Positions 18,062-24,379 of a stretch of 58,331 nucleotides of DNA are shown here, one piece after another (positions within the stretch are counted from its first letter, which is position 1; each line of letters opens with the position of its first letter). Under the pieces are notes generated by a model. The model searched no databases, was not told the origin of the DNA, and was given only the letters and a program-made list of their open reading frames with translations. The position numbers and the translations under genes were made by a program. The stretch is from Minisyncoccota bacterium (GTDB taxonomy: Bacteria; Patescibacteriota; Minisyncoccia; UBA6257; JAGOQP01). The stretch spans positions 1 through 58,331 of the forward strand of contig JBAYIV010000003.1 of assembly GCA_041665445.1 (NCBI GenBank). Reading direction: 5' to 3'.

Positions 18062-18619
18062 ATGAAACCGTTTACTATCGTCGGTATTTCAGGGAGTCTT
18101 CGGTTGGGATCTTACAACAGCAGTTTATTGCGTGTGGCACAGCACTATGCGTCAGCACAGGGGATGTCAGTTGATATACTAGACATCGGATCACTTCCGC
18201 TTTTTAACCAAGACCATGAGCGTGATGCGCATGAAGCGGTCATGCAGTTAAAACAAAAAATCAAAGGGGCTGACGGCATACTTTTCGTGACGCCGGAGTA
18301 TAACTATTCAATTTCCGGCTCGCTTAAAAATGCGATCGAGTGGGGGACTCGTCCGTACGGCGACAATAGTTTTGATGGCAAGCCGGCGGGAATTATGAGT
18401 GTATCAACGGGGATTCTGGGCGGTGCGCGTGCGCAGTATCATCTGCGGCAGATACTGGTCAGTCCCAATGTACATGTGATGAATCATCCCGAGATTATGG
18501 TGGGGCAGGCAAAAGAAAAATTCAACGAGGTGGGGGAATTGATTGATGTTCAAACGCAAGAGCGGGTAAAGGAATTTTTAGAGGCGTTTGCACAGTGGAT
18601 GGGGAAATTTGCACAATAG
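18062..18619 (+). CDS. NADPH-dependent FMN reductase
   Basis: GISGSLRLGSYN, TPEYNYSISGSLKNAIEW, GGARAQYHLRQ. Confidence 0.92.
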   Translation: MKPFTIVGISGSLRLGSYNSSLLRVAQHYASAQGMSVDILDIGSLPLFNQDHERDAHEAVMQLKQKIKGADGILFVTPEYNYSISGSLKNAIEWGTRPYGDNSFDGKPAGIMSVSTGILGGARAQYHLRQILVSPNVHVMNHPEIMVGQAKEKFNEVGELIDVQTQERVKEFLEAFAQWMGKFAQ

Positions 18620-18638
18620 TAGCGTTATTGTTTGGCGT

Positions 18639-18673
18639 ATATAAAAACACTCCGATGTATCGGAGTGTTTTTA
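18639..18673. terminator. Bidirectional terminator
   Basis: ATAAAAACACTCCGAT-GT-ATCGGAGTGTTTTTAT. Confidence 0.75.
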
Positions 18674-18678
18674 TTCCG

Positions 18679-18749
18679 TGGACCCACGGGGAGTCGGACC
18701 CCGACCTGTTCCATGCCATGGAACCGTTCTACCGCTATACTATGGGCCC
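18679..18749 (-). tRNA. tRNA-Ala(GGC)
   Basis: Cloverleaf with acceptor GGGCCCA/TGGGTCC including the G3:U70 Ala identity pair, anticodon arm GTTCC-ATGGCAT-GGAAC, T loop TCCGACT. Confidence 0.9.
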
Positions 18750-18871
18750 ATCAGTTGCCAAAAAGAGCAAAATCATAATACAATGGATTGAGACCATTCG
18801 CAACTACGCCTCCGTAGTTTCCGCCAAGGGCGGATCCATCCTTCGGGTGGCAACGGATGATAATACGCAAC

Positions 18872-18943
18872 GCCCCCGTAGTTCAACGGATAGAATCGGC
18901 CCGTCCTAAGGGTTTGATGTGGGTTCAATTCCTACCGGGGGCA
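18872..18943 (+). tRNA. tRNA-Arg(CCT)
   Basis: GCCCCCG/CGGGGGC acceptor, anticodon loop GTCCTAA, T arm GTGGG-TTCAATT-CCTAC. Confidence 0.9.
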
Positions 18944-19104
18944 CAGAGCAAGCAAATTGTTTTGCTTGCGTGGGGAATTGAACGCCGCCTGCCTACGGCA
19001 GGCAGGGAGCATGTGTGAGTAACAATGAGCACCGCGAGGCGGCGGTTAGACCAGTGCGAGCGACGGCGAGCAATGAGTCGGAGCCAATTCCTACCGAGGA
19101 CACA
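18944..19104 (+). mobile_element. tRNA-associated miniature structured element, copy 1
   Basis: About 84% identical to 21911-22053. Ends in an 18/20 duplicate of the tRNA-Arg 3' end (CAATTCCTACCGAGGACACA). Mobility is inferred, not shown. Confidence 0.65.
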
Positions 19105-19112
19105 CAAAAAAT

Positions 19113-19445
19113 ATGAGTAGAGAAATACCACATAACGGAACAGAAAATTATCATGTGATGCGCAAAATGACGGCTGATGAAGCGGCTACTCTTTTAGATT
19201 TCTTTCATCTCCCCGACGAGCATCCCGAGTACATTATCATTCCGTATCCCAATAAAACGGTTTACATTCATAAATGGACGCGTATTCCGCATATAAAAAA
19301 TAATTCTCAAGATCCCCATCTCATCAATGTCATCAGTGACACGGATGAGGTTGGATTGGTTGTCGCAAAAGAGCTGGAAAAGGCGCGAGAGGCGTTTGCT
19401 GCGATTAAGGCCAAAGATATTGATAAAATCGAGCCAATCAAGTAG
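19113..19445 (+). CDS. Hypothetical protein
   Basis: 110-aa ORF with ATG, between the element and tRNA-Ser. No recognised family. Confidence 0.6.
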   Translation: MSREIPHNGTENYHVMRKMTADEAATLLDFFHLPDEHPEYIIIPYPNKTVYIHKWTRIPHIKNNSQDPHLINVISDTDEVGLVVAKELEKAREAFAAIKAKDIDKIEPIK

Positions 19446-19458
19446 GGTGGTAAAAACT

Positions 19459-19545
19459 GGAGGGTTCGCATAGTGGTCTAGTGCGCCGCACTCGAAATGC
19501 GGTTGGGGAGAGATCCCCTCACAGGTTCAAATCCTGTACCCTCCG
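19459..19545 (+). tRNA. tRNA-Ser(CGA)
   Basis: Anticodon arm CCGCA-CTCGAAA-TGCGG, long variable arm, discriminator G. Confidence 0.93.
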
Positions 19546-19607
19546 CCCAGTGGTCAAACCATGTATTCTTCATAAAATTATTTGTGAGGTATCGACAGGG
19601 CTTTTAT

Positions 19608-20255
19608 ATGAAAAAATCTTTGCAGGAAAGGTTAATCAAGATAGCGCAAGAAAGGCAGGTTGCAACGGACGTATCTCATGATTTTGGGCATGTGCAGCGC
19701 GTTTTTAATCTTGCGGTGCAGATAGGAAAGAGTGTTAAGGCCGATTTGGACGTAGTCATTCCCGCAGCCCTTTTTCACGACACGGTTGTTTATAGAAAAA
19801 ATGACCCAAGGAGAAAAAATGAGACGGATGAAAGCGCGGAAGTTGCCGGCAATATTTTAACAAAAGTAAGCGGATATCCGAAAAAGAAAATAGAATTAGT
19901 GAAAGTTTGTATTCGTCAATGTTCGTTCACCAAAGGAATAAAGCCGGACGCATTGGAATCAAAAGTTTTGCAAGATGCCGATTTACTTGAGTCGACGGGT
20001 GCCATTTCCATCATGAGGACGTTTTCTTCGTGCGGGCAGATGGGTCGGATTTTCTATAATCCCCAAAGTCCGTTTTTCAAAAAGAATGAGATTGGTGTTC
20101 AATCCGGCGTCGGGTTATTCTATTCTCGCCTTTTGGTGGCGGAGAAAAGAATGCACACAAAATTTGCCAAGCGGATCGCCAAAAGAAGGACTGCCTTTTT
20201 AAAGAAGTTTTTAAATGAGCTGAAGACAGAACTTCGGGAGTCAAAAATAATTTAA
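19608..20255 (+). CDS. HD domain metal-dependent phosphohydrolase
   Basis: SHDFGHVQRV, AALFHD, LQDADLLESTGAI. Confidence 0.9.
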   Translation: MKKSLQERLIKIAQERQVATDVSHDFGHVQRVFNLAVQIGKSVKADLDVVIPAALFHDTVVYRKNDPRRKNETDESAEVAGNILTKVSGYPKKKIELVKVCIRQCSFTKGIKPDALESKVLQDADLLESTGAISIMRTFSSCGQMGRIFYNPQSPFFKKNEIGVQSGVGLFYSRLLVAEKRMHTKFAKRIAKRRTAFLKKFLNELKTELRESKII

Positions 20256-20315
20256 TCCATCACTGTTAGCATTCACGCATAGACAAACAAGGGTAGGGCT
20301 GTATCATCAAATAGT

Positions 20316-20609
20316 ATGTCTCAAGTCTTCCGGCGAACTAAAGAAAATTTTATCTGCGAGCATTGCGGCGCGCAAGTTGCTGGCAACGGCTACACCAACC
20401 ACTGCCCCAAATGTCTGTGGAGCAAGCATGCGGACACCAATCCGGGAGACCGTGCCGCGCAGTGCGGTGGCATGATGGAGCCGATTCGGGTTGAGACAAA
20501 GGGGAGAGAATACCGTATCGTTCACCGATGCACAACGTGTGGCGTGGAACGAATTGTTGATGTGGCTGATGGGGATGCAATAGAGATTTTAATCGCGGGA
20601 AAACAATAA
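20316..20609 (+). CDS. RNHCP domain protein
   Basis: FICEHCG...YTNHCPKCLWSKH...GDRAAQCGGMM...HRCTTCG. Confidence 0.88.
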   Translation: MSQVFRRTKENFICEHCGAQVAGNGYTNHCPKCLWSKHADTNPGDRAAQCGGMMEPIRVETKGREYRIVHRCTTCGVERIVDVADGDAIEILIAGKQ

Positions 20610-20612
20610 GCT

Positions 20613-21404
20613 ATGGGAAAGAAATTGCCGAAAATAGGTTTGGCGTTGGGTGGCGGGGGTGCTAAGGGATTGGCACATATCGGTGTTTTGGAGGTACTGC
20701 AAGAAAACGACATACCGATTCACGCAATTGCTGGCACGAGCATGGGGGCGTTGATTGGCGGGATGTACGCACTGGAAAGCGACGTTGATGTGGTTTATGA
20801 GTATGCGCGTCAAGCGATCGACGGAAAGTTTCTGCCGGTGTTTTTTGATATGCCTCGCGGAGGCGGATTTTCATCCGGAGAAAAAGCACACAGGCTCATT
20901 GACACTTTTGTGGATAACAAGACTTTTCAACAAACGTGTGTTCCTTTTTGTGCTGTGGCAACTGATCTTGCAAAGGGAACGGCAGTTGGTCTGAAAAGTG
21001 GATTGTTGTCATCGGCAATTCGCGCCAGCATTTCATATCCGCCTATTTTTGATCCGATGCGAATTGGCAAACGAGTATTGGTCGATGGAGGATTGAGCAA
21101 TCAGGTCCCGGTGGCATTTGCGCGCGCGATGGGCATGGATCGGGTTATTGCGGTTAACGTAGACGCCGATTATCAATTCGACCCAGAAAAGAGAATGACC
21201 CCCGCGACGCTTTCGCGTGTAACGATTAAGTTGCTTTTGCGATCCATCGCCGCATTCTCATCCGCATCAGCCGATGTGATTATCGCCCCTCGGGTGGGAG
21301 ATATGAGTGTGTGGTTGGATTTTAACAAGATGGATGAAATTATTTTGCGTGGCAGAAAAGCGACCGAAAAAGCACTCCCCGCAATACGAGCGCTGTTAAA
21401 ATAA
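20613..21404 (+). CDS. Patatin-like phospholipase
   Basis: LGGGGAKG, GTSMG and DGG motifs. Confidence 0.92.
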   Translation: MGKKLPKIGLALGGGGAKGLAHIGVLEVLQENDIPIHAIAGTSMGALIGGMYALESDVDVVYEYARQAIDGKFLPVFFDMPRGGGFSSGEKAHRLIDTFVDNKTFQQTCVPFCAVATDLAKGTAVGLKSGLLSSAIRASISYPPIFDPMRIGKRVLVDGGLSNQVPVAFARAMGMDRVIAVNVDADYQFDPEKRMTPATLSRVTIKLLLRSIAAFSSASADVIIAPRVGDMSVWLDFNKMDEIILRGRKATEKALPAIRALLK

Positions 21405-21412
21405 ATATTTTT

Positions 21413-21486
21413 TGGTCGGGCTGCTGGGAATCGGACCCAGACCGCATGCTCCCAAAGCATGTATACTACCACTATACTACAGCCCG
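21413..21486 (-). tRNA. tRNA-Pro(TGG)
   Basis: Anticodon arm CATGC-TTTGGGA-GCATG, T loop TCCGATT, encoded CCA. Confidence 0.92.
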
Positions 21487-21681
21487 TCACTTGCCATACT
21501 ATCGTGATGGCATACAAAAAGCAACAAAGTTGCTTTTTGTATGCCATCATGAGTACAATCAATGAGATGCATAGTGTCCCCGTGGTTTCCACCAGAGGCG
21601 GATGGCACTCGGGGTGGCAGCGGATGGCGTGAATGGCGGCGAGGTGCTTTGTGCAATCAAATCATTGCGTGCTCAATAATA

Positions 21682-21753
21682 GCCCCCGTAGTTCAACGGA
21701 TAGAACAGGGCTCTTCTAAGGCCTTGATGTGGGTTCGACTCCTACCGGGGGCA
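21682..21753 (+). tRNA. tRNA-Arg(TCT)
   Basis: Anticodon loop CTTCTAA; body nearly identical to tRNA-Arg(CCT). Confidence 0.92.
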
Positions 21754-21807
21754 CTGGTTTATATTGCACGGAGCGGTTTTTTCTGTTACTCTTTTACGGA
21801 ATCAAAA

Positions 21808-21879
21808 GCCGCGGTAGCTCAGTGGTAGAGCTTTCGCCTGAAGAGCGAAGAGTCGTCAGTTCGATTCTGACCCGCGGCA
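21808..21879 (+). tRNA. tRNA-Phe(GAA)
   Basis: Anticodon arm TTCGC-CTGAAGA-GCGAA, T arm GTCAG-TTCGATT-CTGAC. Confidence 0.94.
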
Positions 21880-22071
21880 CAAGCGAGTGAAGCGAACGCA
21901 GAAGCCGCGGAGAGCGAGCAAACTGCTTTGCTCGTGATCAGAAATCGAACGCCGCCTGCCTACTGGCAGGCAGGGAGCATGTGCGAGTAGTAACGAGCAT
22001 GGCGAGGCGGCGGCTAGACCACTGCGAGCGACGGAGAGCAGTGAGTCCGAGCCGATTCTGACCCGCGATAC
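21880..22071 (+). mobile_element. tRNA-associated miniature structured element, copy 2
   Basis: Core 21911-22053 is homologous to 18945-19085. Ends in CGATTCTGACCCGCG, a perfect 15-nt duplicate of tRNA-Phe 21862-21876. Confidence 0.65.
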
Positions 22072-22148
22072 ATCCCTGGCCGACGATCAACAACCGAAGA
22101 AGACTCTCGTTGTGTGTTGTGAGTGGTTGGCCGTCGGTTAAGGAATAT

Positions 22149-22220
22149 GGTGGCCTTAGTGTAGTGGTAACACAACAGTTTGTGGCACTGTTATCACGGG
22201 TTCAAATCCCGTAGGCCACC
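22149..22220 (+). tRNA. tRNA-His(GTG)
   Basis: Encoded G-1, anticodon arm ACAGT-TTGTGGC-ACTGT, C73. Confidence 0.93.
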
Positions 22221-22348
22221 CAGAAATCGATTGTTTTTAAAAGTCATTCATGCTACACTTCAAAAAGTCCGAAGGGGGATTTTATTTTTGGTCTGTCTGA
22301 AAAATGACGCCGGAAATGACTAGTATTTAAGCGGTTTTTAAAACATCT

Positions 22349-24379
22349 ATGGCAGCAAAAAAAGCTCAAGCGCCGGAAGAAAAAAAGGTATCATACAGCG
22401 CAAAGGATATCTATGTTCTTGAGGGACTAGAGCCCGTTCGTAAGCGTCCGGGGATGTACATCGGATCGACCGGTATCGACGGTCTGCACCACCTGGTGTG
22501 GGAGGTTGTTGATAACTGCATTGATGAAGCGATGGGCGGATTTGCGACGCATATTCGCGTTGAATTGCTTCCTGACAACATGATTAGCGTGACCGATAAC
22601 GGTCGCGGTATTCCGGTTGACATTCATTCGCACACAAAGAAATCGGCGCTCGAAACGGTTTTGTGTACGTTGCATGCGGGAGGAAAATTCGGCGGTGAGT
22701 CATATAAAGTCGCCGGCGGATTGCATGGCGTGGGCGTATCGGTGGTTAACGCATTATCATCGCGGATGAAAGTTGAGGTGGACCGAGATGGCGGATCATA
22801 TGTGCAGGAGTATAAGCGAGGTGTGCCGCAATATAATGTCAAAAAAGTCGGCAAATCAGATGCAACTGGGACAAAAGTAACCTTTCAACCAGATGTGGAG
22901 ATCTTCTCAACACTCGAGGTTGATCGGAAAAAAATTATTGAACACTTGCGTCAGCAGGCCTTTTTGGTCAAGGGAATTGAGATTGAAATTATTGATACGC
23001 GCGGCGAGGTGCCGTTGTATCATGCCTTTCGGTTTGAGGGCGGATTGCTTTCGTTCCTGTCGTATTTAAATGAATTTGAGGAACCACTCAACGGCACGCC
23101 GTTTTATGTCAATAAGGAATATGAAAAAATTCAGGTTGAGGCGACGTTTGTGTATGACAATGGCGCCGATACGAAAGAATTGAGTTTTGCCAACAATATC
23201 TATACATCCGATGGCGGCATGCACTCGACCGGATTTCGCAGTGCGTTAACGCGCGTGATAAACGATTATGCTCGTGAAACGGGATATATAAAAGACAAAG
23301 AAGAAAATCTGACGGGCGATGATGTGCGCGAAGGATTGGTCGCGATTGTTTCGGTGAGAATCGGCGATCCGCAATTTGAAGGACAAACCAAGGCGCGTCT
23401 GGGTAATCCGCCCGCCCGCACGGCCGTTGAGGCGGTCGTGGCTGAAGCGCTCAAGGAATACGTGCAAAAATATCCCAATGAAGGCCGTACCATTATTGCC
23501 AAGTGTATGCTGGCGGCAAAGGCACGCAAGGCCGCCAAGGCAGCCAAGGAAACGGTTTTGCGCAAGGGGCCCTTTGAGGGGCTTTCGTTGCCGGGGAAAT
23601 TAGCCGATTGTACCTCCAAGGACCCGGCTGACTCCGAGCTTTTTATTGTTGAGGGAGATAGCGCCGGTGGATCGGGCAAGCAAGGACGTGATCGGCGTTA
23701 TCAGGCCATTCTGCCGTTGCGCGGAAAAATTTTAAACGTGGAAAAATCTCGTTTGGATAAAATGCTTGCCAACAACGAGATCAAATCGCTCGTTATCGCA
23801 TTAGGAACGGCAATCGGCGCCGACTTTACCGCAGACAAAATCCGCTATCACAAAATTATTATTATGACCGATGCGGATGTTGATGGTGCTCACATTCGTA
23901 CGTTGTTGCTGACCCTATTTTACCGTCACTTCCGTGAGATTATTGAGCGAGGATATTTGTACATCGCACAGCCGCCGTTGTATCGTGTCAGTTTCGGGAA
24001 AGAATTTAATTATGCATATGATGATGGGGCAAAGGATGTGCTGGTAGCACAACTGCAACGCATGCGTGCCGCAAAGAAGAAACCCGCTGCGCCAAATGCC
24101 GATGACCGCATTGTTGAGTCGGTGCCCTCGGAGAGCGAGGAGGCAGTTACCGACCAAAAGGGTATCACCATACAACGGTACAAAGGGTTGGGAGAAATGA
24201 ATCCTGATCAGTTGTGGGAAACAACCATGGATCCGGCGCGTCGCATGCTCTTACAAGTGGCCATTGATGACGGACAAGAGGCTGATCGGTTGTTTGATGT
24301 TCTTATGGGAGAGAAAGTCGCACCGCGCAAGCACTTTATCCAAAGTCGCGCAACCACCGTTAAAAATCTTGACATTTAG
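22349..24379 (+). CDS. gyrB: DNA gyrase subunit B
   Basis: EPVRKRPGMYIG, VEGDSAGG, PLRGKILNV, IMTDADVDG, QRYKGLGEM. Confidence 0.95.
   Translation: MAAKKAQAPEEKKVSYSAKDIYVLEGLEPVRKRPGMYIGSTGIDGLHHLVWEVVDNCIDEAMGGFATHIRVELLPDNMISVTDNGRGIPVDIHSHTKKSALETVLCTLHAGGKFGGESYKVAGGLHGVGVSVVNALSSRMKVEVDRDGGSYVQEYKRGVPQYNVKKVGKSDATGTKVTFQPDVEIFSTLEVDRKKIIEHLRQQAFLVKGIEIEIIDTRGEVPLYHAFRFEGGLLSFLSYLNEFEEPLNGTPFYVNKEYEKIQVEATFVYDNGADTKELSFANNIYTSDGGMHSTGFRSALTRVINDYARETGYIKDKEENLTGDDVREGLVAIVSVRIGDPQFEGQTKARLGNPPARTAVEAVVAEALKEYVQKYPNEGRTIIAKCMLAAKARKAAKAAKETVLRKGPFEGLSLPGKLADCTSKDPADSELFIVEGDSAGGSGKQGRDRRYQAILPLRGKILNVEKSRLDKMLANNEIKSLVIALGTAIGADFTADKIRYHKIIIMTDADVDGAHIRTLLLTLFYRHFREIIERGYLYIAQPPLYRVSFGKEFNYAYDDGAKDVLVAQLQRMRAAKKKPAAPNADDRIVESVPSESEEAVTDQKGITIQRYKGLGEMNPDQLWETTMDPARRMLLQVAIDDGQEADRLFDVLMGEKVAPRKHFIQSRATTVKNLDI

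Follow-up and report, generated by a model that had tools for sequence, protein, structure and literature searches.

The DNA analyzed here (the window, i.e. the whole stretch of 58,331 nt) is contig JBAYIV010000003.1 of a Minisyncoccota bacterium, whose genome (724 kb, 99.7% complete, 45 annotated tRNA genes) is designated G000 below. Its forward strand, on which all features of the two elements described here lie, carries tRNA-Arg(CCT) at 18872-18944 (ARAGORN; Rfam RF00005, 51.7 bits; CCA not encoded) and tRNA-Phe(GAA) at 21808-21880 (ARAGORN, Rfam), and each of these genes is followed by a copy of a small structured element that ends in a direct repeat of the 3' part of the very tRNA it follows. 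The conserved cores of the two copies, both of which belong to a family that we call A, were located at 18946-19084 (copy 1; BLAST/nhmmer, covariation, and fold) and 21912-22052 (copy 2; BLAST/nhmmer, covariation, and minimum free energy [MFE] fold). They are 84% identical across 139 nt (BLAST E = 1.4e-37), much as had been noticed in a sequence-only reading of the window, and a third family-A copy of G000 was found behind tRNA-Arg(CCG) on another contig (C4:38522-38656). The element measures about 120 to 170 nt, encodes no protein, and lies directly 3' of a tRNA or transfer-messenger RNA (tmRNA) gene, on the same strand as that gene. Coding potential was considered and rejected, the alignment of the two window copies showing two separate 1-nt indels.

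The direct repeats were delimited in both copies. In copy 1, the upstream member (DR1; 18926-18945, CAATTCCTACCGGGGGCACA) runs from C56 of the T loop to 2 nt beyond the discriminator and represents the functional copy, while the downstream member (DR2; 19085-19104, CAATTCCTACCGAGGACACA) is a displaced and decaying tRNA 3' part that agrees with it at 18 of 20 positions. In copy 2, DR1 lies at 21862-21881 (CGATTCTGACCCGCGGCACA) and DR2 at 22053-22072 (CGATTCTGACCCGCGATACA), the two being identical over the first 15 nt and at 18 of 20 positions overall. Both duplications had been described from the sequence alone as repeats of the tRNA's own 3' end from the T loop onward (18 of 20 positions in copy 1 and a perfect stretch of 15 nt in copy 2), and both descriptions stood. 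Since the mismatches of both copies fall in the downstream repeat, where acceptor pairing would break, the upstream tRNA tail must be the working one. When up to 3 kb downstream of each of the 45 tRNA genes of G000 were scanned with 14-mers (at most one mismatch), a repeat of the gene's own tail was found 90 to 180 nt downstream at nine of them, against about 0.3 expected by chance over the 45 genes according to our own arithmetic. Across all loci fetched, 105 non-redundant tRNA and tmRNA genes with a tail repeat were collected, representing 36 tRNA species plus tmRNA, so the proposal that the terminal repeat tracks the adjacent tRNA now extends far beyond the window. The repeat starts at positions 56-57 in 44 of these genes and at 59-60 in 27, i.e. 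within the T loop, and its length varies from 10 to 139 nt (median 18 nt). Exact identity ends at positions 74-76 in 48 of the 105, and such a stop at the end of the tRNA is what selection on a gene-completing tail would predict. The repeats copy the genomic trailer (e.g. ACATAATAAA), and CCA is present only when the gene encodes it. A mature tRNA was therefore rejected as their source, the signature of post-transcriptional CCA addition being absent. At three other loci of G000 (C4:38657-38700, C4:37660-37700, and C15:4808-4850, belonging to tRNA-Arg(CCG), tRNA-Arg(GCG), and tRNA-Glu(CUC)), the displaced tail is split between its T-stem strand and its acceptor strand by a small hairpin, either CCCCGYG-T8-GCGGGG or CCTGCCGGGAGGCAGG.

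Altogether, G000 contains 12 elements of two core families, located behind 11 of its 45 annotated tRNA genes and behind one intron-containing tRNA. Family A (GAGCRAGCAAA...GAACGCC...) follows tRNA-Arg(CCT), Phe, Arg(CCG), and Leu(GAG), and family B (GGAAGGGGTCGGGG...GTGTAGGAAATTATTCAAAACC...GACGTGA) follows tRNA-Lys(UUU), Leu(UAA), Pro(CGG), Ala(UGC), Asp, Arg(GCG), and Glu(CUC), one more family-B copy being located 1.6 kb behind the intron-containing tRNA. Among 40 relatives from the same order, which served as our comparison set, family A was detected in 13 and family B in 23, mostly in several copies each. The 71 profile matches lie, with few exceptions, 2 to 85 nt after a tRNA of the same strand and are followed by the tail of that tRNA. 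A wider search of one-genome-per-species contigs with the 20-nt motif of family-A hairpin 1 gave at least 120 exact matches. Among the matches listed were Paceibacterota (Kaiser-, Yonath-, Colwell-, Taylor-, and Niyogibacteria as well as Minisyncoccia), many Saccharibacteria, Woese- and Peribacteria, and several gut Elusimicrobia, and 49 of 85 matches across phyla were found within 100 nt after a tRNA or tmRNA. Most of these genes again show the tail repeat. The expectation that members of such a family should follow tRNAs was thus borne out by nearly all profile matches and by more than half of these motif matches. Viral vectors were considered and discarded: IMG/VR lacks the family-B motif, and its two matches to the family-A motif are chance occurrences within coding sequence. 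Rfam gave no match over 18945-19104 or 21881-22072, either in a gathering-threshold scan of the window or in a scan of 18600-22400 at E ≤ 10, these scans returning only tRNAs and sub-threshold noise. Full-text literature searches turned up no description of the element, nor does it figure in a 2026 preprint on noncoding clustering, all of which agrees with the early suggestion of an uncatalogued family.

Besides the sense repeat, the element contains an antisense one. The segment a' of copy 1 (18970-18983, GTGGGGAATTGAAC) is antisense to the T loop and the 3' strand of the T stem and pairs with the start of DR2; that of copy 2 (21936-21950, GATCAGAAATCGAAC) is antisense to the T arm of tRNA-Phe, with one extra base, and has tRNA-Phe as its best match in G000. 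The sequence-only reading, right about the hairpins of the core, had overlooked both segments. In the predicted folds of the two window copies, a' pairs with the beginning of the terminal repeat and thereby closes the core, and this closing helix replicates the T-stem/acceptor minihelix of the host tRNA. Across the families, a' tracks its own tRNA statistically: the duplex of a' with its own DR2 has an energy of -11.1 kcal/mol in family A, compared with -8.3 kcal/mol for the DR2 of other copies, and the corresponding values in family B are -15.0 and -11.2 kcal/mol (permutation p ≤ 1e-4 in either case). Two stronger or different descriptions of a' were tried and did not hold. As a sharp identifier of its own tRNA within G000, it proved only partly true, the family-wide tracking being nonetheless significant, and a sense copy of the 5' half of the T arm was rejected on the strength of non-palindromic loops (e.g. 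GAATTGAA vs TTCAATTC).

The two families accommodate a' differently. In family A, it forms a variable stretch inside the element, flanked on one side by hairpin 1 and on the other by the GAACGCC core, both of them conserved, and a complement of the acceptor 3' strand, where present, is situated 5' of hairpin 1. The Phe copy has such a complement (GCCGCGG, 21904-21910), and in a tmRNA-linked copy perfect complements of the acceptor and T strands flank hairpin 1. The complement of the Phe copy belongs to a longer segment (21899-21910, CAGAAGCCGCGG) that was recognized by repeat search as a copy of the tRNA-Phe leader and 5' acceptor strand (CAAAAGCCGCGG at 21803-21814) and that pairs with the end of DR2 as an acceptor-like stem in the MFE fold. 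It is preceded by a spacer (21882-21898) that looks like a collapsed remnant of the 5' part of an element (AGCGAG..TGA..CGAACG). The core of copy 2 had thus been recognized correctly from the sequence, and these roughly 30 additional nucleotides (21882-21910) had been missed. The predicted fold of the whole Phe copy consists of an acceptor-like stem followed by hairpin 1 and by a T-like stem that has the core as its cap, an arrangement that, with its acceptor complement, would mimic a tRNA minihelix. In family B, a long imperfect palindrome extends from the tRNA T loop across trailer and terminator up to where the core begins; its center is the loop of the tRNA terminator, and a' makes up its descending arm. 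The arms of the palindrome span 33 to 40 nt and align with a score of 18.6, compared with 6.6 for shuffled arms. The family-B layout can be written as T - tip - T' - core - T, i.e. forward tail, hairpin tip, inverted tail, core, and forward tail.

This last arrangement raises the question of whether the elements are by-products of replication errors, in which snap-back or template switching at the terminator hairpin and at the T-arm palindrome (tandem inversion duplication) would generate T - T' - T and the core would be a mere hairpin that promotes or marks the switch events. Family B indeed shows the exact forward-inverted-forward order, with junctions at two hairpins, and the second forward copy runs on through the trailer and terminator in 14 of the 105 cases. 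However, a conserved, covarying core of 100 to 130 nt recurs at 36 tRNA species and across phyla, and random switching is improbable as its origin because the same core would not be imported every time. Furthermore, the inverted segment of family A is internal to conserved blocks, and T - T' - T arrangements devoid of a core are absent at the tRNAs of G000. We consequently regard replication error as a very unlikely origin of the elements.

The fold of the family-A core was derived from 19 copies of 10 genomes and comprises, on the tRNA-sense strand, hairpin 1, a long-range helix (CGCC/GGCG), a variable hairpin, and a nested 3' domain. In this alignment, pairing holds for 96.1% of cells, and 25 of the 31 pairs have changed on both sides in a compensatory manner; none of 500 shuffles reached this level, and partners that were slid out of register gave 34 to 45% paired cells. 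G.U pairs outnumber A.C combinations by 18 to 4 in family A and by about 25 to 3 in family B, which identifies the tRNA-sense strand as the structurally selected one. In copy 1, hairpin 1 (GCAAGCAAA-TTGT-TTTGCTTGC) occupies 18948-18969 and has nine pairs, seven with compensatory change, and the 3' core domain (19044-19085) consists of nested helices closed by GGTT/AGCC, helices 5 and 6 showing compensatory change in 11 of their 12 pairs. The hairpins with compensatory changes that had been pointed out in the two window copies are therefore real, the Arg(CCG) copy adding CGCCACC/GGTGGCG to the series. What had escaped notice is that one of them is a nested insertion of 20 nt: this GC-rich hairpin module (18987-19006, GCCTGCCTACGGCAGGCAGG, in copy 1; 21954-21974, GCCTGCCTACTGGCAGGCAGG, in copy 2) occurs in the Arg(CCT), Phe, and Arg(CCG) copies of G000 and is absent from 16 other family-A copies, including that behind tRNA-Leu(GAG) in the same genome. 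As only these three share the module, they either multiplied after gaining it or were homogenized. A palindrome of the same type, of about 20 nt (CCTGCC-N3-4-GGCAGG, often extended to GGCAGGCAGG), is confined to tRNA-linked sites in G000. Besides both window copies, these are C4:38565-38581, C2:703-720, C4:23127-23144, C15:4825-4838, C1:81084-81097, and C26:2565-2582; the contexts include three family-A cores, partial tRNA copies beside two tiny GIY-YIG genes, a displaced tRNA-Glu tail, and the vicinity of tRNA-Leu(UAG) and tRNA-Leu(CAA). The palindrome thus behaves like a separate mini-insertion module.

Comparison of related genomes revealed that occupancy of individual tRNA genes changes. 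Relative to a member of the same genus (G001), the sites behind tRNA-Pro(CGG), Lys(UUU), and Arg(GCG) are filled in G000 and empty in the congener, those behind tRNA-Ser(GGA) and Ala(CGC) are empty in G000 and filled in the congener, and tRNA-Arg(CCG) bears family A in the former and family B in the latter, while the copies at tRNA-Leu(GAG), Ala(UGC), and Asp are filled in both and evidently orthologous. At tRNA-Ser(GGA), the native flank (TTGAACrGGAGAAAGCGAATGTG) directly borders the tRNA where the site is empty and the distal repeat where it is filled, and it follows from this comparison of flanks that the insert consists of terminator, a', core, and tail. In a genome of a different genus (G011), the order tRNA-Arg(CCT), small open reading frame (ORF), tRNA-Ser(CGA) is kept and the element is absent, and in the syntenic Arg(UCU)-Phe-His-Pro(UGG) cluster the occupied members differ among genera. 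The empty sites in relatives that a mobile family calls for do therefore exist. The nearest relatives of a given copy are found at other tRNAs of the same genome, with 85 to 97% identity (Arg(CCT) and Phe, 85%; Leu(UAA) and Lys(UUU), 97%; two copies of G032, 93%), and one pair with 93% identity comes from different genera and different tRNAs. The assembly of G001 is fragmented, with many tRNA genes located within 100 to 400 nt of contig ends, which fits repeated elements breaking short-read assemblies.

Variant forms were also encountered. Tandem or partly repeated units are common. Two loci of G001, L081 at tRNA-Leu(CAA) and L085 at tRNA-Ser(GGA), contain circularly permuted family-B modules, in which the GGGGTCGGGG and CCCCG halves close the element; this order suggests that a circle or tandem array was re-linearized. 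Two copies hold cargo between the tRNA and a', namely a SocA/Panacea antitoxin gene plus an unknown ORF in G000 and an ORF of 138 aa at locus L052 of a relative. One family-B copy, antisense to the gene that it adjoins, lies at the 5' end of a tRNA-Leu and is accompanied by a 24-nt repeat (positions 1-24 of this tRNA) and by an a' to match, and because of this copy the T loop must be regarded as preferred, not obligatory. The cargo-bearing locus of G000 (C2:69891-72000, reverse strand) is that of the intron-containing tRNA, which ARAGORN had missed and whose 3' exon ends with ..GGTTCGAGTCCTACCTGCGGAGCC. Upstream of this exon, there are an HNH-endonuclease-like ORF and a group-I-like structured stretch, and the tRNA is followed by the antitoxin gene, the unknown ORF, a terminator, and the family-B element with its tail repeat. 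The gene may encode tRNA-Asn or tRNA-Glu(UUC), both of which are missing from the ARAGORN list.

Fold and turnover together bear on a quite different explanation, according to which the element is a resident functional RNA, i.e. a tRNA-like trailer that mimics an acceptor/T-stem minihelix with the core substituting for the T loop. Transcribed together with the tRNA, it would be excised by RNase P and RNase Z, and it might act in tRNA processing or quality control, as a decoy for tRNA-targeting nucleases or integrases, or as a protein sponge; its copies would be old, homogenized by gene conversion, and at times deleted between the repeats. This agrees with the following observations: (i) the folded strand is the tRNA-sense strand, (ii) the family-A copies of the window have no terminator between tRNA and element and lie inside a tRNA operon, (iii) the Phe copy has acceptor-like and T-like stems and the tmRNA-linked copy perfect complements of both around hairpin 1, (iv) classes of Patescibacteria and some Elusimicrobia share one and the same hairpin 1 sequence, and (v) the copy at tRNA-Leu(GAG), shared by both congeners, is evidently old. 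On the other hand, the occupied sites are scattered and not the same in congeners or at syntenic clusters, a given tRNA bears different families in two congeners, DR2 decays and is broken by other hairpins, and family B has an intrinsic terminator between tRNA and element. Moreover, the cargo-bearing, tandem, and permuted forms and the antisense copy at a tRNA 5' end are marks of insertion. On balance, we consider a resident RNA unlikely.

Enzymes that could move the elements were searched for by protein family in the window, in G000, and in the 40 relatives. No mobilizing enzyme was found in the window, as the sequence-only reading had maintained, and the remainder of G000 holds weak candidates only. 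Exactly one tyrosine recombinase (PF00589) is present in G000 and in most relatives, and no additional tyrosine integrase was detected in G000 with this family. The protein is XerC/XerD/XerA-like, scoring 231 bits against XerC, which is under the curated cut-off, 113.7 bits against the integron-integrase model (cut-off 265), and below the phage-integrase cut-off as well. Large serine recombinases are absent from G000 and from other element-rich genomes, the Y1 transposase (PF01797) is absent from G000, TnpB (PF07282) is absent from G000 and exceeds the family cut-off only in G006 among the 41 genomes, and IS110 (PF01548) is absent from all 41. No parental insertion sequence (IS) was found in about 190 loci.

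These data bear on the most conventional explanation, in which the elements would be scars of ordinary integrase islands, attL and attR at a tRNA gene with the interior of the island deleted. Integrases that target T loops classically leave a direct repeat running from the T loop to the tRNA 3' end, and two copies hold small cargo. Nevertheless, one conserved, covarying core is found at 36 tRNA species, each genome has a single Xer-like tyrosine recombinase that stays below the integron and phage-integrase cut-offs, and G000 has no serine recombinase. In addition, identical boundaries are not expected from independent deletions, and no full-length island with an integrase and with cores at both ends was seen among the approximately 190 loci, which leaves island scars highly improbable.

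Reverse transcriptases gave a different picture. RVT_1 matches were obtained in 19 genomes including G000, where the protein is retron-like, and the family is missing from several element-rich genomes (G003, G007, G028, and G032, with 4 to 6 element copies each, which may be relics). The enzyme does not co-vary with the element, which speaks against it as a dedicated mobilizer. The explanation to which this result pertains is RNA-mediated copying, in which a tRNA-like element RNA would be reverse transcribed and its cDNA would enter beside a tRNA gene, either by target-primed synthesis at a T-loop nick, giving a target duplication of variable length, or as a hybrid cDNA made by a template switch onto pre-tRNA and followed by homologous recombination, a route that has reportedly been described for the Mauriceville retroplasmid of Neurospora. 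Such copying is in line with a precise 3' junction combined with a variable repeat length (10-139 nt) and 5' junction, with the tRNA leader and first 7 nt found at the 5' junction of the Phe copy, which resemble a template jump, with the sense strand being the folded and transcribed one, and with RVT_1 in 16 of 20 genomes of G000's own family, the single retron-like enzyme of G000 among them. By contrast, no RVT_1 match was obtained in G028 (five copies), G032 (four copies), G003, or G007, the repeats carry genomic trailer and never CCA where the gene has none, the cargo lies outside the hairpin, between tRNA and a', where a simple retro-insert would not put it, and a' is left unexplained. RNA-mediated copying thus seems to us quite unlikely.

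The remaining candidates are tiny GIY-YIG nucleases of 80 to 120 aa, which number between none and nine per genome and are represented by three genes in G000. The five genomes that have no small GIY-YIG gene have no detected element either (p of about 0.008 by our own hypergeometric arithmetic, uncorrected for phylogeny). Two of the three genes of G000 are inserted at tRNA-Gln(CUG) and tRNA-Ser(GCU) beside partial tRNA copies, and these copies carry the CCTGCC..GGCAGG module that is nested in the window elements. The shared hairpin is a physical, though circumstantial, link between the GIY-YIG loci and the element, not proof, and we retain these nucleases as mobilizers only in the sense of a lead. 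At C2:330-809 (reverse strand) and C4:23124-23408 (forward strand), the genes (80-117 aa) lie directly upstream of the intact tRNA-Gln(CUG) and tRNA-Ser(GCU), and each is preceded by a partial 5' tRNA copy that is interrupted by a GC palindrome. The tRNA-Gln(CUG) gene is then followed by a partial 3' copy with a hairpin in the anticodon loop. These GIY-YIG genes look like homing-type elements that carry or rebuild a tRNA.

Taken together, the position of the copies, the tracking of the tRNA by the repeat, and the empty sites support the original idea of a non-coding, non-autonomous family that targets multiple tRNAs. That the two window copies are members of a phylum-wide mobile family mobilized in trans, for which we propose the name tRNA-tail hairpin elements, has in our estimate about an even chance of being correct; that the elements are mobile now or have been so recently is probable. 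A mechanism may be outlined as follows. A unit composed of tRNA 3' part, spacer, terminator or cargo, a', and core would enter a tRNA gene within the T loop, at positions 56-60. The element-borne tail would complete the tRNA gene, and the old tail would be pushed downstream as DR2 and subsequently decay. Recombination of the two tails could lead to loss or circularization of the unit, which might then return to the same tRNA in other cells, form tandem stacks, and take cargo along. Campbell-type recombination in the T loop would fit because identity stops at the tRNA end and family B brings its terminator along, and because cargo lies between tRNA and a' and units stack and permute. Catalysis would occur in trans, with the single Xer-type recombinase, the tiny Slx1-like GIY-YIG nucleases, and general recombination or replication functions as candidates. 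Entry by hairpin- or circle-type recombination through a host enzyme is, in particular, a possibility that we put forward tentatively and consider somewhat doubtful.

How the arms stay matched to the local tRNA requires a separate explanation. Family-A cores with 85 to 97% identity have variable arms, embedded between conserved blocks, that differ wholesale. This excludes point mutation as the origin of matched arms and implies that templated copying must occur, which might take the form of gene conversion against the neighboring tail or of template switching within the quasi-palindrome. A bolder version, which we rate as less probable still than entry by host recombination, is a protein-less, self-retargeting hairpin. 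Its single-stranded DNA (ssDNA) arms would pair with the strands of the target, usually the T arm and acceptor region of a tRNA and sometimes a tRNA 5' end or the end of a protein gene, a host enzyme (Xer or GIY-YIG) would insert it, and the new target would rewrite the arms through heteroduplex or template-switch copying. If true, this would amount to naturally programmable, nucleic-acid-guided integration whose guide is copied from the target.

Several observations weigh against a mobile family of this kind. The a' segment is often decayed in G000, and its own tRNA is not always its best match. None of the candidate enzymes is tied to the element: Xer is found in all genomes, with or without detected elements, the GIY-YIG association is one at genome level only, and three small GIY-YIG genes that lie directly downstream of tRNA-Gln in other genomes lack any duplication of the tRNA. 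The integrase route that the repeats imply stays hypothetical, with a single Xer-type tyrosine recombinase per genome. A search of metagenome contigs yielded no exact empty allele of either window site. Gene conversion (concerted evolution), instead of recent transposition, could account for the likeness of copies within a genome. Conservative (att) recombination alone cannot make arms for a new tRNA, and the retargeting step is hypothetical. Finally, a 20-nt motif that is identical across classes is unusual for purely selfish DNA and suggests a conserved partner or a host function.

The surroundings of the two copies show a few further features. A small ORF (MSREIPHNGTENYHV...KWTRIPHIK...; 19112-19440) begins 7 nt past the terminal repeat of copy 1; it has no Pfam match, and its synteny with tRNA-Arg(CCT) and tRNA-Ser(CGA) is kept in another genus. 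A 24-nt inverted repeat (21502-21552; 96% complementary, 3-nt loop) directly upstream of tRNA-Pro(UGG), on the strand of that gene, is probably a bidirectional terminator. The gap between DR2 of the Phe element and tRNA-His is spanned by a long imperfect hairpin (CCTGGCCGACGATCAACAAC...GTTGTGAGTGGTTGGCCGTCGG; 22075-22137).

We next compared the element with known systems, and it lacks at least one defining feature of each. With integrative elements that target tRNA or tmRNA genes (tyrosine-integrase prophages, integrative and conjugative elements, and islands of the T-loop sublocation class, and non-autonomous derivatives such as cis-mobilizable elements), it shares the location at the 3' gene end, the repeat from the T loop to the end (18/20 in both window copies), the intact gene, the displaced distal copy, tandem stacking, and occasional cargo. 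It differs in being a geneless sequence of 100 to 170 nt with no cognate integrase in the genome, in using one core family for dozens of tRNA species (cores of 85-97% identity occur at different tRNAs within a genome, in place of one lineage at one tRNA), and in adding an inverted copy of the target and a structurally selected core. In single-stranded form, the proposed unit would be a dumbbell with a stem replicating the target duplex, a principle on which integron attC sites and the CTX-type elements exploiting the host Xer (integrative mobile elements exploiting Xer, IMEX) are built. The element may be compared with these as an imperfect one-strand hairpin of about 60 to 140 nt with unpaired bases and a stem imitating the target duplex; its closing stem (a' with DR2) has a bulge, and a strand bias is present. 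Cargo lies upstream of the hairpin, arrays form at the anchor site, and a host-type tyrosine recombinase would suffice; the T-loop junction GTTCRA/TYGAAC resembles GTTRRRY/RYYYAAC. Unlike attC and IMEX, however, the target is the T arm of a tRNA and not attI or dif, the repeats of gene ends are long, the junctions (..TTGAAC and GTTCRA or GAGC) deviate from the attC core sites RYYYAAC/GTTRRRY, IntI, attI, and the cassette promoter Pc are absent, and there is no evidence of Xer action on the element.

Other small elements resemble it in other respects. Miniature transposable elements with inverted repeats (MITEs), palindrome-associated elements derived from IS200/IS605 (PATEs), and repetitive extragenic palindromes and their mosaics (REP/BIME) are likewise small, non-coding, hairpin-rich, multi-copy, and dependent on functions in trans; their inverted ends are fixed, whereas those of the present element derive from the target and change with the tRNA, and in place of a fixed short duplication there is a long, variable one (10-139 nt), no parental IS having been found. 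A PATE or an omega-RNA would call for Y1 transposase, TnpB, or both, and G000 has neither. The target-complementary variable block within a conserved fold and the combination of sense and antisense target segments recall the bridge RNA of IS110 and the exon- and intron-binding sites (EBS/IBS) of group II introns, but the element has neither a recombinase nor an intron-encoded protein, its segments of 8 to 23 nt come from one target stretch, and Rfam revealed no signature of splicing or of a ribozyme. With short interspersed elements (SINEs) and the Mauriceville retroplasmid, the element shares a tRNA-like fold, its association with tRNA genes, duplications that vary, and perhaps template jumps; it differs from them in having no CCA signature, in not being derived from a whole tRNA, and in the absence of reverse transcriptase from several element-rich genomes. 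Finally, GIY-YIG homing genes near tRNAs (SegB of phage T4) and mobile ORFs of fungal mitochondria also insert at gene ends and provide a spare gene end, and the tiny GIY-YIG genes at tRNA-Gln and tRNA-Ser(GCU) of G000 share the hairpin module; the element, though, encodes nothing, and its link to a nuclease is circumstantial. The property expected of a structured non-coding RNA, namely compensatory change on one strand beyond that of controls, is present. The chance that the elements use a new kind of mechanism is substantial.

These elements fill about a quarter of the tRNA genes of G000 and recur across Patescibacteria. They break assemblies at tRNA genes, confuse the annotation of tRNAs and islands, and mimic the att scars of integrases. 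The cargo-bearing forms suggest a route by which toxin-antitoxin and accessory genes may travel in genomes that are nearly devoid of classical mobile elements. The puzzle that they pose is how a geneless sequence of 130 nt gains arms that match dozens of essential genes without destroying these genes. Its solution might show a housekeeping recombinase or nuclease in a new role, or a new templated rewriting relevant to programmable DNA insertion; alternatively, it could reveal a new class of tRNA-like RNA in host-dependent bacteria that are hard to grow.

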